NCBI GenBank assembly: GCA_964620905.1
Contig: CAZUKA010000002.1
Span: 25,496-89,495 of the forward strand
DNA: 64,000 nt
Direction of reading: 5' to 3'
DNA from: an uncultured Gammaproteobacteria bacterium
Lineage (GTDB): Bacteria; Patescibacteriota; Patescibacteriia; S139-126
Part shown: positions 10,925-13,806 of the stretch, piece by piece
Layout of the letters: the number at the start of each line of letters is the position of its first letter
Numbering within the stretch: the first letter of the stretch is position 1
Made by a program: the position numbers and the translations under genes
Notes under the pieces: generated by a model
Told to the model about the DNA's origin: nothing
Seen by the model: only the letters and a program-made list of their open reading frames with translations
Databases searched by the model: none

Positions 10925-11638
10925 ATGAAAAAGCATGAGACATCGGTCCTGACCGCTGGTCAGATGAAAGAGCTTTCCAGTGCTATATTGGAAGCAATCC
11001 CTGCCAATTTACCAACCAGTACTGCCCAGTACTGGATAGGCAACAAAAAAAAGTTGCAAAAAATTTTACGTGAAGCACTTGGCGTTCAACCTTTTTTTGA
11101 TTATCTTGCCGACTGGCAAGATTTCTACCGGGATGTGTTTAACCTGGAGTTTGATTTTTCTGAAATCTCTATTCCTGATAAAAAATCAGGTTTTGACAGA
11201 TTAATAATTGTTGCTCCCGGCATGACACCCCAAGTCTTATTCAATAAATGTTCCGAGTTGTTTTCAACTTGGAAATACACTGATAAATCTTTGGATGAGG
11301 TAATAACCTCTGACCGCACTTCTGCAAACGGCGCTTATGCCGTCTGGTTCCGCGATAGAGTGGAAGCAGATGAGGAGATGAAAAACATCTACGCCAATCA
11401 GCTTAAAAAGCAAAAAGTAATCAGCATTACCTTAGAAGAACGTCTCTTAATGGAACTTAAGTTCTATCAAGAGACTGGGAAACATTTAGATGTTTCCAAT
11501 ATTACTTTATGTGCAGGTTCTCGCCATGACGGCGGCAACGTCCCGGGCGTCGACTGGCTCGATAGTGAGCTCGAGGTCAGCTGGTATGACCCTGACAATC
11601 AGCACGACGATCTGCGTTGTCGTGTAGCAGTGGTCTAA
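10925..11638 (+). CDS. DGR variable (target) protein, 237 aa, VR in the C-terminal 38 codons
   Basis: The last ~118 nt of the CDS are a GC-rich repeat of the TR. Variable positions fall in codons corresponding to TR AAC/AAT/AAG/GAC. C-terminus WYDPDNQHDDLRCRVAVV. Confidence 0.85.
   Translation: MKKHETSVLTAGQMKELSSAILEAIPANLPTSTAQYWIGNKKKLQKILREALGVQPFFDYLADWQDFYRDVFNLEFDFSEISIPDKKSGFDRLIIVAPGMTPQVLFNKCSELFSTWKYTDKSLDEVITSDRTSANGAYAVWFRDRVEADEEMKNIYANQLKKQKVISITLEERLLMELKFYQETGKHLDVSNITLCAGSRHDGGNVPGVDWLDSELEVSWYDPDNQHDDLRCRVAVV
11515..11632 (+). repeat. DGR variable repeat (VR)
   Basis: Aligned by eye to 11900-12017. It differs only where the TR has A. Confidence 0.85.
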
Positions 11639-11658: not shown

Positions 11659-11690
11659 AACCCTTTCATAAAAATGAAAGGGTTTTAATT
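11659..11690 (+). terminator. hairpin/terminator ~25 nt downstream of VR (aaccctttcat-aaaaa-tgaaagggtt + T-rich)
   Basis: 10-bp perfect stem. The position matches the stem-loop commonly found downstream of DGR VRs. Confidence 0.6.
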
Positions 11691-11899: not shown

Positions 11900-12017
11900 A
11901 GGTTCTCGCAATGACGACGACAACGTCCCGAACGTCAACTGGAACGATAGTAAGCTCAAGGTCAACTGGTATAACCCTGACAATCAGAACGACAATCTGC
12001 GTTGTCGTGTAGAAGTG
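11900..12017 (+). repeat. DGR template repeat (TR), non-coding, Asn-codon (AAC) rich
   Basis: Translated in the VR frame it reads RNDDDNVPNVNWNDSKLKVNWYNPDNQNDNLRCRV. 7 AAC codons, 6 of them diversified in the VR. Confidence 0.85.
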
Positions 12018-12023
12018 TCTTTT

Positions 12024-12050
12024 AAACCCGCTCTTTATTGGAGCGGGTTT
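12024..12050 (+). other. GC-rich hairpin immediately 3' of TR (aaacccgctc-tttattg-gagcgggttt)
   Basis: 10-bp stem. It overlaps the stop of the minus-strand Avd-like ORF. Confidence 0.5.
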
Positions 12051-12390
12051 ATTTATAAAGAGATTTTATCCAACCATTAGTCATTTTTGACATTTCTTGC
12101 AAAATGGAGATTAATTCTAGATATTGTTTTTGGGAAATAATTGTTAGTTCTTGGCAAATTCTTAGTAATCGTTTTGTAATTTCAATATTAATTCGTGATT
12201 TTTCTAAAATATTAATCTTGGTTGATTTGTTTGACAGAGCGGCTTCAATCAGTAGAGTAATAATGTTTAAACATATGTTTTCAATTTTAAGAAAAATTCC
12301 CAACTTATCTTTTTTTGCTAGTCTGGATGAAATTTGGTATATTTTTTTATATAATTCAAAACTTCTATGTACCAACGGCACATTTTGCAA
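12049..12390 (-). CDS. Avd-like accessory variability determinant (four-helix-bundle protein, 23S-rRNA-IVS protein family)
   Basis: 113 aa amphipathic helical protein. Pattern (HRSFELYKKIYQIS...IENICLNIITLLIEAALSNKS...LEKSRINIEITKRLLRICQEL...MTNGWIKSLYK) matches the PF05635/TIGR02436 family that includes DGR Avd. It is encoded antiparallel to TR and RT. The start is TTG or GTG; there is no ATG. Confidence 0.65.
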   Translation of the reverse strand: MQNVPLVHRSFELYKKIYQISSRLAKKDKLGIFLKIENICLNIITLLIEAALSNKSTKINILEKSRINIEITKRLLRICQELTIISQKQYLELISILQEMSKMTNGWIKSLYK

Positions 12391-13432
12391 AAACTCGTCG
12401 GGGGGGGGGATTAAAGGACATAATTTATTTGAGCAAATTATTAGTTTAGATAATTTGTTTTGCGCCTGGCGCGAGTTTCAGTGCGGAAAAATGAAAAAAC
12501 CCGATGTGCGTGAGTTTGCTTTTGCTTTGGAAGATAATATTTTTTCCTTGCACGACGAATTAAAAAATAAAACTTACCGACACTCTCATTATACTTCATT
12601 TTATGTATCTGACCCAAAGCTAAGGCATATTCATAAGGCCTGTGTCAGGGACAGGGTATTGCACCATGCGATATTTAGAGTTTTATATCCTGTGTTTGAT
12701 AAGTCATTTATTTTTGATTCTTATTCCTGTCGGTTAAAAAAAGGCACGCACAGGGCAGTTGATAGGTTAGAGAGATTTTGCCTTATGGTCAGTCAGAATA
12801 ATAATTACAACTTTTACTATCTAAAATGTGATATTAAGAAATTTTTTGTTTCGGTTGATCAGGAGATTTTAGTTTGTCTTATCAAGAAAAAAATTGTTGA
12901 TCCAGACGCACTCTGGTTGATACAAGAAATTACTAATAGTTTTCAGACTAGCAATAACAAAGGATTACCGTTGGGTAATGTCACTAGCCAGCTTTTAGCT
13001 AACATTTATTTAAACAAACTTGATCAGTTTATAAAACATCAGCTAAAGGCTAAATATTATCTCAGATATTGCGATGATTTTTTGCTATTATCACCTGATA
13101 AAAATTTATTGGTTGATTATGTCGGGTTGATTGATGATTTTTTACAGAACCATTTAAAACTCAATCTCCATCCTGACAAAATAATCATAAAAAAATACAA
13201 CCAGGGAATTGACTGGTTGGGCTATGTGGTTTTGCCGCATTACCGGCTACTGCGCACCAAAACCAGGCACAGGATTATTGAGCGGATTAAGAATAAACAA
13301 AGAGATTTTAAGTCAGGAGTTGTCAGTCAAGAGCATTTTTGCCAGTCAGTCCAGTCGTATCTGGGAGTGCTTGAGCATTGTTCCGGGTATAAAATAGAGC
13401 GAGAGATGCTGCGCCTTGTGAGTAATGATTAG
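12367..13432 (+). CDS. DGR-type reverse transcriptase (frame interrupted by the G10 tract at 12400-12409 in this assembly)
   Basis: RT motifs: CRLKKGTHRAV (motif 2), YYLKCDIKKFF (motif 3/A), GLPLGNVTSQLLANIY (motif 4 with DGR-specific SQ), RYCDDFLLL (motif 5/C, YxDD), LGYVV (motif 6). The co-linear frame is open from 12104 but its first ATG is at 12491, inside the conserved N-terminal region. The ATG at 12367 is in frame only if the G-run is 9 rather than 10. Confidence 0.85.
12400..12409. repeat. G10 homopolymer at the 5' end of the RT gene / 5' UTR of the Avd-like gene
   Basis: Ten consecutive G in a ~35 % GC genome. It sits 31 nt after the ATG at 12367 and 10 nt upstream of the minus-strand Avd-like start. 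Confidence 0.8.
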
Positions 13433-13503: not shown

Positions 13504-13806
13504 ATGAACAATTTAGAAAAATTGATTTTTAAGATCAATCAACAGCAGACGGTTTTTAAAATAGAGCATGAACAAATAACCAATAGTCTTATATTGACTA
13601 TTAGTGTTAATAAAACCGACAAAGAAGATTTAAAAAAATTACTCAAAAAAATAAGAAAGAATTACCAGTGTGAAAATCTCACCGGCACAAATGAGCCAAC
13701 CTCACCTGTTTTTGGTCAAAATACCAATCTAGCTATTTACAGTTTAATTTTTCATTCGCAAAAAGAAATAGAAAAAGTCATTAAATTTATCGGGACTCAT
13801 TGTTGA
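13504..13806 (+). CDS. hypothetical protein (100 aa)
   Basis: ORF with a GGAGAG RBS and an upstream TTGACA box, followed by the hairpin gggactcattgttgagtccc. Confidence 0.45.
   Translation: MNNLEKLIFKINQQQTVFKIEHEQITNSLILTISVNKTDKEDLKKLLKKIRKNYQCENLTGTNEPTSPVFGQNTNLAIYSLIFHSQKEIEKVIKFIGTHC

Follow-up and report, generated by a model that had tools for sequence, protein, structure and literature searches.

The run of ten guanines at positions 12400-12409 probably acts as a slipped-strand, phase-variable switch on the activity of a DGR, and the present assembly would represent its off state. The window (the whole 64,000-nucleotide stretch of DNA analyzed) carries this tract in the middle of a 55-nt antisense overlap between the start regions of the DGR reverse transcriptase (RT) gene and the divergent accessory gene avd. 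A phase-variable RT had been proposed in the initial annotation, and that reading gains support from the conservation of the tract, from length alleles within species, from other repeat types at the same site and from an upstream ATG with the properties of a selected start. New in the present analysis is the suggestion that the tract breaks avd as well, since a conserved Avd ATG lies beyond it. The features of the element are listed below.

10925..11638, + strand: DGR target gene, 237 aa, without Pfam match (ORF and Pfam)
11515..11632, + strand: variable repeat (VR), 3' end of the target gene (repeat comparison with the TR)
11659..11684, + strand: terminator-like hairpin directly after the VR and target gene (sequence scan)
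11900..12017, + strand: template repeat (TR), a 118-nt direct repeat of the VR, 87% identical (repeat comparison)
12024..12050, no strand assigned: hairpin AAACCCGCTC / GAGCGGGTTT between the TR end and the avd stop codon (read from the sequence)
12049..12390, - strand: Avd body, a bAvd-like four-helix-bundle accessory protein (Pfam bAvd PF22296, E=1.2e-12)
12327..12355, + strand: promoter-like site (-35 ATGAAA, -10 TATAAT) ending 11 nt before the RT ATG (consensus scan)
12365..12421, - strand: distal Avd start ATG 12421-12419, antisense of the RT His codon CAT, with its short ORF in the C10 state (MSFNPPPRRVFAKCAVGT, stop 12367-12365; direct reading)
12367..12414, + strand: RT start codon ATG 12367 with its short ORF in the G10 state (MYQRHILQKLVGGGD, stop TAA 12412-12414; direct reading)
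12400..12409: homopolymer G10/C10, the proposed slipped-strand switch (read directly)
12410..13432, + strand: RT body, 340 codons, with YCDD motif, one frame off its ATG (Pfam RVT_1, E=9e-21)

The tract and the two start regions

The initial annotation correctly placed a G10 run at this site in a low-GC genome. The window has a GC content of 34.4% and G10 is its sole G/C homopolymer of at least nine, the runner-up being a G8 at 535-542; about 0.02 G10 runs are expected in the window under a first-order Markov model. An identical G10 is present in two Logan assemblies (SRR10807626 and SRR10807893), giving three assemblies of the strain from separate runs, an agreement that counts against a switch and also against a miscall. 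A search of JGI metagenomes for the exact flanks of the strain returned no match. Because three of three assemblies read G10, tract-length heterogeneity in the window strain is something that we infer; homopolymer lengths taken from short-read assemblies carry some risk of error.

The RT has 7330 homologues at E<=1e-20 among the scored candidates, and those in Patescibacteria number in the thousands and adjoin bAvd genes, which marks it as a DGR-type RT. Each of the 15 positions at which TR and VR differ in the window is an adenine in the TR, as in a DGR TR/VR pair, implying past mutagenic activity of the element. Apart from the tract, both RT and Avd are intact (YCDD motif, full bAvd match). 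The region of the hairpin at 12024..12050 gives weak, sub-threshold Rfam matches of leader type; an Rfam scan around the tract found nothing significant.

With one G fewer, ATG 12367 reads MYQRHILQKLVGGGIKGHNLFEQ and continues through to 13432 as an uninterrupted RT of 354 aa, bearing out the earlier observation that this ATG is soon stopped in G10 and that loss of a G restores the gene. The accompanying claim that the RT frame has no ATG until about codon 130 holds downstream of the tract, where the first is at 12491, codon 130 of the 442-aa ORF 12104-13432 and within the conserved region. RT-frame ATGs upstream, at 12104, 12263 and 12275, fall within antisense avd and upstream of the promoter-like site, and the closest relative (L003) has no in-frame start matching them. 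This relative, with an RT 87% identical and the same neighboring genes, has G9, its RT ATG in frame and an in-frame counterpart of the distal Avd ATG. The -10 of the promoter-like site is 45 nt upstream of the tract. Matches of at least five of six to TATAAT occur upstream of the RT ATG in 41 of 48 related loci, most commonly ending 11 nt (18 loci) or 13 nt (9 loci) from it, a signal confounded by Avd coding on the opposite strand.

As assembled, the Avd body ORF has TTG 12390 and GTG 12381 as its only start options, 9 and 18 nt past the C-run. The distance of about 10 nt between tract and Avd start given in the initial annotation applies to the TTG only; comparative evidence points to ATG 12421-12419, beyond the tract, as the real start. 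The ORF initiated by this ATG is out of frame in the G10 state of the window, and in a C9 version it reads MSFNPPPDEFLQNVPLVH into the bAvd-matching body of the DGR accessory gene as a protein of 123 aa. The C-run encodes Pro-Pro-Pro in the Avd frame, which is open through the run in every run-containing locus checked.

We propose that a hypermutable simple-sequence repeat has been placed where the 5' coding ends of the divergent RT (+, ATG 12367) and Avd (-, ATG 12421-12419) overlap; G10 does lie inside the overlapping N-terminal coding regions of both. Both genes are read across the tract in a single register, so its length would fix the two frames together. G9 or G12 would yield both proteins from their ATGs (RT of 354 or 355 aa, Avd of 123 or 124 aa), and G10 and G11 are computed to truncate both ATG frames, so that length toggles the frame in a manner consistent with the register analysis of 77 junctions below. 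In the assembled G10 state both ATG frames would end 2-11 codons past the tract, leaving no canonical start that the RT could use, though TTG 12390 and GTG 12381 might yet initiate a shorter Avd. The tract would gain or lose a G through slipped-strand mispairing as it is replicated, and the element would thereby flip between an active state, in which TR RNA gives rise to adenine-mutagenized cDNA that replaces the VR, and a frozen one. We infer that such switching is frequent and reversible in this organism and that the off state would abolish the RT; selection may act on it as bet-hedging, whereby the target is diversified and a variant then locked in.

Repeats and reading frames in related loci

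Comparison of tract length across related genomes, a check suggested in the initial annotation, was carried out on 144 related Patescibacteria avd-RT junctions, 76 of which have G7-G12 at the tract position, with lengths peaking at G9-G10. Other lineages have (GT)7-9, (CT)10-18, (GA)9-18 or (TGATTGC)x11 at this position, and the repeats in loci L030 and L082 fall inside the open Avd reading frame. The remaining 659 kb of the same loci contain only seven G/C runs of at least seven and ten dinucleotide repeats. With GGG at just 18% of the Gly codons of these genes, substitutions would be expected to erode an uninterrupted G run that selection did not maintain; its retention, together with the varied repeats found at one site, counts in favor of selection on the repeat as such. 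No repeat of this kind was present upstream of any of 63 distant viral DGR RTs, making it specific to the Patescibacteria clade.

Across 77 junctions the frame relation is -1 (one G too many) in 41, 0 (in register) in 12 and +1 (one G too few) in 24, and these states are interspersed among close relatives in the RT tree. Both ATGs are in frame in 12 of 12 in-register relatives, in 8% of those with one G too many (n=40) and in 0% of those with one too few (n=24), the corresponding figure for repeat-free relatives being 81%. All four relatives examined with an interrupted tract or none (L015, L013, L031 and L068) have both genes intact and both ATGs in frame, the interrupted tract of L015 reading GGA GGT GGC; avd and RT starts overlap in L015, L013 and L068, and the NCBI record of L279 annotates an avd-RT overlap of 60 nt.

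The equal correction needed by RT and Avd is not usable as independent proof, because each ATG is the codon-aligned antisense of a His codon in the other gene and the two corrections are therefore equal automatically. Codon choice (CAT vs CAC), repeat-free relatives and interrupted-tract relatives were used instead. The Avd His codon antisense to the RT ATG is CAT in 34 of 49 subgroup loci and never CAC (34 of 34 His cases), and at the RT codon opposite the Avd ATG, 21 of 40 loci have CAT and none has CAC (21 of 21), compared with a baseline usage of 404 CAT to 211 CAC; His codons were counted by motif, a fixed-position count being affected by N-terminal gaps. At the codons opposite the two ATGs, Lys is the usual residue in repeat-free relatives. 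Taken from sequence comparison, this pattern supports ATG 12367 behaving as a selected start codon.

It would be very surprising if the tract were instead noncoding, a 5'-UTR or Shine-Dalgarno-like element between abutting genes, with the RT starting from the non-ATG codon ATT 12410 and Avd from TTG 12390. In a subgroup of 19 junctions the RT does have its own ATG downstream of the run, mostly by 4-38 nt, which places the run in the RT 5'-UTR there; the TTG and GTG codons of the window lie in the Avd frame shortly past the C-run, and a G-run could pair with the anti-Shine-Dalgarno sequence. Against this, the window's own subgroup has no conserved start or near-cognate codon after the run, the far-side ATGs are conserved with exclusively CAT opposite them, the interrupted-tract relatives keep long overlapping ORFs in frame and all in-register loci are intact. 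Moreover, neither (GT)n nor eleven copies of a 7-mer can be a Shine-Dalgarno sequence, and in L030 and L082 the repeat is within open Avd coding sequence. A specific candidate, the G-run as Shine-Dalgarno sequence for a downstream ATG (cTTTAATGg), was rejected, since the ATG concerned does not share the RT frame and is absent from the window.

A tract that is hypermutable with no switching role, its G10 being a recent inactivating frameshift toward pseudogenization or an assembly miscall, is improbable, if less so than a noncoding tract. Length-10 homopolymers are error-prone in sequencing, part of the relatives' genomes are nanopore-based, and the 65 of 77 consensus junctions that are out of register would fit widespread decay. 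Against decay or miscalling stand the G10 agreed on by three assemblies from separate runs, the otherwise intact genes of the window and the presence of both ATGs in every in-register locus. A pure G run would also erode without selection given the rarity of GGG, different repeats have arisen at one site and VRs are actively diversified in tract-carrying populations.

Two findings count against the phase-variable switch at the level of the family. Of the three frame states, being in register is the least common in consensus sequences (12 of 77 vs one third expected), which is unexpected if the on state is usually needed. Some out-of-register loci carry alternative starts in the other frame, and for this reason off may not be fully off. 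Short database RTs (311-327 aa) were considered as a sign of the off state and rejected, gene callers truncating the RT whenever they call a full-length Avd.

Length alleles and VR diversity within species

Tract length varies within species between otherwise near-identical sequences. Species 3 has alleles G8, G9, G10 and G11 with 0 mismatches across 1650 nt of flank, species 1 has G9, G10, G11 and G12 with at most one mismatch in ~1.6 kb of flank, and species 2 has G9 in eight contigs and G10 in two. Beyond the two four-allele species, two further sets vary in tract length with identical flanks. Pairs of alleles differing by an in-frame +3 were observed, namely G9 with G12 and G8 with G11.

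In species 1 and 2 the VRs differ between almost all samples while all else is identical. Judging from these differences and from the 15 of 15 adenine differences in the window, the elements are probably live, the between-sample diversity coming from the related species. Every consensus contig sampled from species 2 and 3 has the RT ATG out of register. Their VRs are nonetheless diversified, which counts against the switch and indicates that RT must be produced in some way. Either a minority subpopulation in the on state or slippage during expression would account for this.

Slippage is known to occur at long homopolymers, and CCC-C is known to be prone to +1 shifts. The genome might accordingly stay at G10, with RT and Avd made at a low set level through RNA polymerase stutter on the G/C run or ribosomal +1 shifts on GGG-G and on CCC-C of the poly-proline stretch, the tract then being an attenuator rather than a DNA switch. 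We regard this as unlikely, though it is the strongest of the alternatives considered. It has in its favor the out-of-register but diversified species 2 and 3, as well as the commonest frame state, one G too many (41 of 77), which a +1 shift would correct. No single shift direction fits the family, however, as the opposite state is found in 24 of the 77 junctions and another 12 are already in register; the dinucleotide and heptanucleotide repeats of other lineages are not correctable by a one-base ribosomal slip, and length alleles are seen directly in DNA. The predicted fold of 12360-12480 is no better than that of shuffled sequences (z = -0.98), with no stable structure flanking the tract, and the distance from the run to the zero-frame stop varies across junctions and is not conserved.

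Programmed frameshifting, offered as an alternative in the initial annotation, is unsupported on the same grounds. Neither a prfB-type +1 nor a dnaX-type -1 event fits loci with no fixed frame relation (all three occur among relatives) and no conserved stimulator. A prfB-like +1 frameshift at the G-run followed by CTT TAA was rejected as a family feature, both the post-run sequence and the frame relation being variable.

Significance and comparison with known systems

Beyond the window, it is fairly probable, though less so than the switch itself, that simple-sequence repeat switches (poly-G, (GT)n, (CT)n, (GA)n or 7-mer) have evolved repeatedly across a large clade of Patescibacteria DGRs, within the stretch that encodes the Avd N-terminus; the subgroup that includes the window would have them in the N-terminal coding sequence of the antisense-overlapping RT too. 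Targeted hypermutation would then itself be phase-variable, with populations mostly off and the target diversified only in a stochastic on minority, a second-order bet-hedging that may be described as "mutate, then lock". A cost is to be expected when a functional target protein is mutated without restraint. If real, a switch in the start regions of RT and Avd that is both heritable and stochastic would offer a simple account of how activity is controlled in the very large group of DGRs in the Candidate Phyla Radiation (CPR), with one mechanism of hypermutation gating the other. Gene callers shorten or overlook RT and Avd at such loci, and DGR surveys therefore probably score many CPR elements wrongly, as defective or with incorrect N-termini.

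The window DGR resembles canonical DGRs (Bordetella phage BPP-1, Legionella, Treponema) in its DGR-clade RT, bAvd and TR/VR pair with adenine-only differences. It also matches the "B3" architecture TR-(avd)-RT, in which an inverted avd separates TR from RT, an arrangement reported to hold for 90% of CPR DGRs (PMC5758913). Our search of the DGR literature found no description of a repeat tract, overlapping avd/RT starts or frameshift on/off control, in line with the initial annotation, which knew of no phase-variable control of a DGR.

The tract is similar to the poly-G/C contingency loci of Campylobacter jejuni, Neisseria, Haemophilus and Helicobacter in being a G/C run of 8-12 near the 5' end of coding sequence in a low-GC genome, in varying in length, in related species, between near-identical strains and in setting the frame on or off by length modulo 3. 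Those loci are surface or restriction-modification genes, whereas here the genes encode enzymes of targeted hypermutation in uncultured Patescibacteria, and a single tract, shared by two start regions that overlap in antisense, would set both frames. In phage contingency loci, hypermutable repeat tracts serve reversible frameshifts outside the classical pathogens (bioRxiv 10.1101/2025.10.21.683753); as far as the accessible part of that preprint goes, these concern other genes and hosts and have no retroelement link.

The DGR tract shares with known cases of homopolymer recoding (the prfB +1 frameshift, Thermus dnaX, transcriptional slippage in IS elements and poly(A) rescue in endosymbionts) a homopolymer in a coding region that separates an ATG from an out-of-frame gene body. 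Those cases have one fixed frame relation and conserved stimulators, in contrast to the three relations and DNA-level alleles found here. Coregulation of two divergent genes by one repeat is known from the Haemophilus influenzae hifA/hifB fimbrial switch, where a (TA)n repeat lies between the genes. That repeat alters the -10/-35 spacing of overlapping promoters, whereas the present tract is downstream of both presumed transcription starts and would act on the reading frame. Switchable mutator states also exist, for example through reversible repeat-mediated inactivation of mismatch-repair genes, which turns the capacity to generate mutations heritably on and off. Mismatch-repair switches alter the mutation rate genome-wide, whereas the proposed DGR switch would gate mutagenesis of a single 118-nt target.

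The DGR and its G tract in the window

The locus in the window is a DGR, with the following features.

Features of the DGR locus
10925-11638: DGR target gene
11515-11632: variable repeat (VR)
11900-12017: template repeat (TR)
12049-12390, minus strand: bAvd gene, between TR and the reverse transcriptase gene, RT (PF22296, E=1.2e-12)
-10 TATAAT ending at 12355: promoter-like site, 11 nt before the RT ATG
12410-13432: RT body (RVT_1, E=9e-21), one frame off from ATG 12367

All 15 differences between TR and VR fall at TR adenines. GC-rich hairpins lie directly 3' of the TR (12024-12050, overlapping the avd stop codon) and directly 3' of the VR (11659-11684, scoring as an intrinsic terminator). 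A 100-aa ORF without a Pfam match (13504-13806) directly follows RT, keeps its position in the closest relative, L003, and in the related loci L001 and L002, and is possibly a further DGR-associated gene.

The G10 at 12400-12409 is the sole G/C run of at least 9 nt in 64 kb of DNA with a GC content of 34.4%, where about 0.02 would be expected. The second-longest, G8 at 535-542, is in frame (W-G-G-R) within ORF 9-995. Translation from ATG 12367 gives MYQRHILQKLVGGGD and then a stop at 12412-12414, and deleting one G restores an uninterrupted RT of 354 aa; the initial annotation had described the site correctly. At G10 in the window no canonical RT start was found in frame within 120 nt, which would make this an off state. 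L003 (RT 87% identical, flanking genes shared) carries G9 with the RT ATG in frame. An identical G10 is present in two independent Logan assemblies, and assembly error is an unlikely source of tract length for the family as a whole, while single genomes could be affected.

Antisense overlap of the avd and RT starts

The initial annotation had proposed a switch of RT alone; control of RT by the tract is supported, its exclusivity is not, since the Avd frame crosses the tract too. The C-run on the minus strand encodes Pro-Pro-Pro in the Avd frame at every run-containing locus checked. Past it, an RT His codon (CAT 12419-12421 in the window) reads as the Avd ATG on the opposite strand, and the His of the Avd motif P-[IL]-V-H likewise supplies the RT ATG in antisense. 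The start regions of RT and Avd thus share 55 nt (12367-12421) on opposite strands, with the tract in the middle of the overlap. From the far-side ATG, Avd reads MSFNPPPDEFLQNVPLVH... for 123 aa at C9 and stops after 18 codons at C10; at G10 in the window Avd could start at TTG 12390 or GTG 12381, which would shorten the protein by 11-14 residues. Each ATG lies in codon register with the gene on the other strand, so RT and Avd require equal tract length; this follows automatically from the arrangement and is no independent evidence.

Independent evidence beyond the coupling comes from codon choice, frame and register match, interrupted tracts, an existing annotation and promoter spacing. The His codons opposite the ATGs are CAT in 34/34 (Avd) and 21/21 (RT) cases and never CAC, against a baseline usage of 404 CAT to 211 CAC; four further cases have CAA (antisense TTG) at the Avd His-codon site, and repeat-free relatives mostly have Lys at these positions. 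In-frame ATGs for both genes follow register, that is, whether the sequences on the two sides of the tract are in frame with each other.

Junctions with an in-frame ATG for both genes
No run: n=68; 81%
Run, in register: n=12; 100%
Run, one G too many: n=40; 8%
Run, one G too few: n=24; 0%

At locus L015, GGA GGT GGC stands in place of the run, RT reads MNNRQISEGGGHSLY, Avd reads MATSLTDLPIVHK, and both genes are intact, as they are at L013, L031 and L068 with interrupted or no tracts. The NCBI record of L279 already annotates a 60-nt avd/RT overlap. A TATAAT match of at least 5/6 lies upstream of the RT ATG in 41 of 48 loci, ending most often 11 or 13 nt away, a spacing signal that is confounded by Avd coding.

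Whenever full-length Avd is called through the C-run, RT is annotated in a shortened form that begins internally (311-327 aa), apparently because gene callers refuse an antisense 5' overlap. This was seen in L084-L103 and in the clusters of proteins P0060, P0093, P0104 and P0078, where database RT lengths and N-termini are therefore unreliable.

Conservation and length alleles of the tract

Two sets of relatives were compared, with RTs 47-66% identical: 80 loci from species-representative genomes, almost all of which are assigned to Patescibacteria/CPR or listed as unclassified, and 80 loci from metagenomes. A divergent avd adjoins RT in 148 loci, and 80 of these have a G run of at least 7 exactly at the junction (three G7, six G8, 32 G9, 27 G10, ten G11 and two G12); poly-G occupies 76 of 144 unique junctions. 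The comparison of related genomes suggested in the initial annotation thus gives a conserved position with lengths from G7 to G12. GGG makes up only 18% of Gly and CCC 18% of Pro codons in the avd and RT genes, so the pure run is not a by-product of codon usage. In 19 junctions of a second subgroup RT has an ATG of its own on the downstream side, so that the run is crossed by Avd alone. The L111 junction has a composite A7G6 instead, out of register by one.

RT variants within 90%-identity protein clusters differ only N-terminally, by GGG versus GGGG or another frame, and tract length varies within species.

Tract alleles within species
Species 1 (L084-L093, L279): G9 x7, G10 x2, G11 x1, G12 x1; 0-1 mismatch over ~1.6-2.9 kb outside the VR
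Species 2 (L094-L103): G9 x8, G10 x2; 1.6 kb flanks identical save one base change beside the tract
Species 3 (L184-L190, L277, L278): G8 x1, G9 x5, G10 x2, G11 x1; flanks with 0 mismatches
Species 4 (L191-L196): G10 x5, G11 x1; 4/6 identical over ~500 nt, compared upstream only

The few other flank homopolymers (A7, T7, A8) are invariant, and both in-frame allele pairs, G9 with G12 and G8 with G11, are present. The G11 of L191 differs from L192-L196 by a T-to-G substitution beside G10, with no indel and the frame unchanged. In species 1 and 2 the VR, ~800-1100 nt upstream of the tract, differs among almost all samples while ~3 kb around it is identical, which indicates that these DGRs are active in nature. 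Indels within the VR are a 1-nt insertion (L090) and a 3-nt deletion (L100).

Other repeats and the proposed switch

Dinucleotide repeats occupy the same position at 7 of 144 unique junctions, and a heptanucleotide repeat occurs at L082.

Non-poly-G repeats at the avd-RT junction
(GT)7-9: L027, L030, L131
(CT)10-18: L066, L067
(GA)9-18: L083, L177
(TGATTGC)x11: L082

Elsewhere in these loci (659 kb) there are just seven G/C runs of at least 7 and ten dinucleotide repeats. At L030 and L082 the repeat lies N-terminally within an open, ATG-initiated Avd frame. On the RT tree each repeat type groups apart from the others, and among close relatives the three frame states are intermingled. A repeat upstream of RT was found in 3 of 17 clade members, one being (CT)19, and in 0 of 63 distant viral DGR RTs; viral contig L212 is among the loci with a non-poly-G repeat. 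The variety of frame-shifting repeats at this one functional position is an argument for selection of mutability itself and against explanations from poly-G chemistry (a Shine-Dalgarno role, G-quadruplex or Gly3/Pro3 motif).

Slipped-strand phase variation is the best-supported model for Avd, and for RT in the window's subgroup: a change in tract length would set the Avd frame and, in that subgroup, the RT frame. Comparative evidence (the conserved tract, within-species alleles and convergent repeats) strongly supports the toggling of RT first proposed, and extends it to control of both genes, to conservation across the family and to convergence of repeat types. The G10 state would abolish DGR activity, and G10 and G9 probably interconvert at a high rate. 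A dedicated programmed frameshift, offered initially as the alternative, finds no support: the relatives show all three frame relations, the stop in the zero frame varies in position, and folding and an Rfam scan found no RNA structure or family around the tract.

Consensus assemblies are least often in register (12 of 77 unique poly-G junctions, L003-L183) and most often carry one G too many (41 of 77), a distribution that may reflect mutational bias, selection for the off state or slippage-based expression. In species 2 and 3 the RT ATG is out of register in every sampled consensus contig, and VRs are nonetheless diversified. Populations mainly off with a transient 'on' minority would fit this pattern, as would slippage in transcription or translation, or alternative starts in the other frame. 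Candidates for such starts are an RT TTG or ATG located 2-26 nt ahead of the run and an Avd ATG abutting the C-run (ATGCCCCCCCCC) in species 2 (L094-L103), species 3 (L184-L190), L047 and L125. The abutting ATG differs in frame from the distal one, so that a tract length which puts Avd in frame leaves the RT ATG out of frame, a hint that the switch may have three states instead of two.

The initial annotation knew of no phase-variable DGR, and we found no report of repeat control in the full-text literature on DGRs or on phase-variable tracts in Patescibacteria, though an earlier mention is possible. A large DGR survey describes the reversed-avd architecture and not the repeat, and gives the TR-(avd)-RT order as that of 90% of CPR DGRs (PMC5758913).
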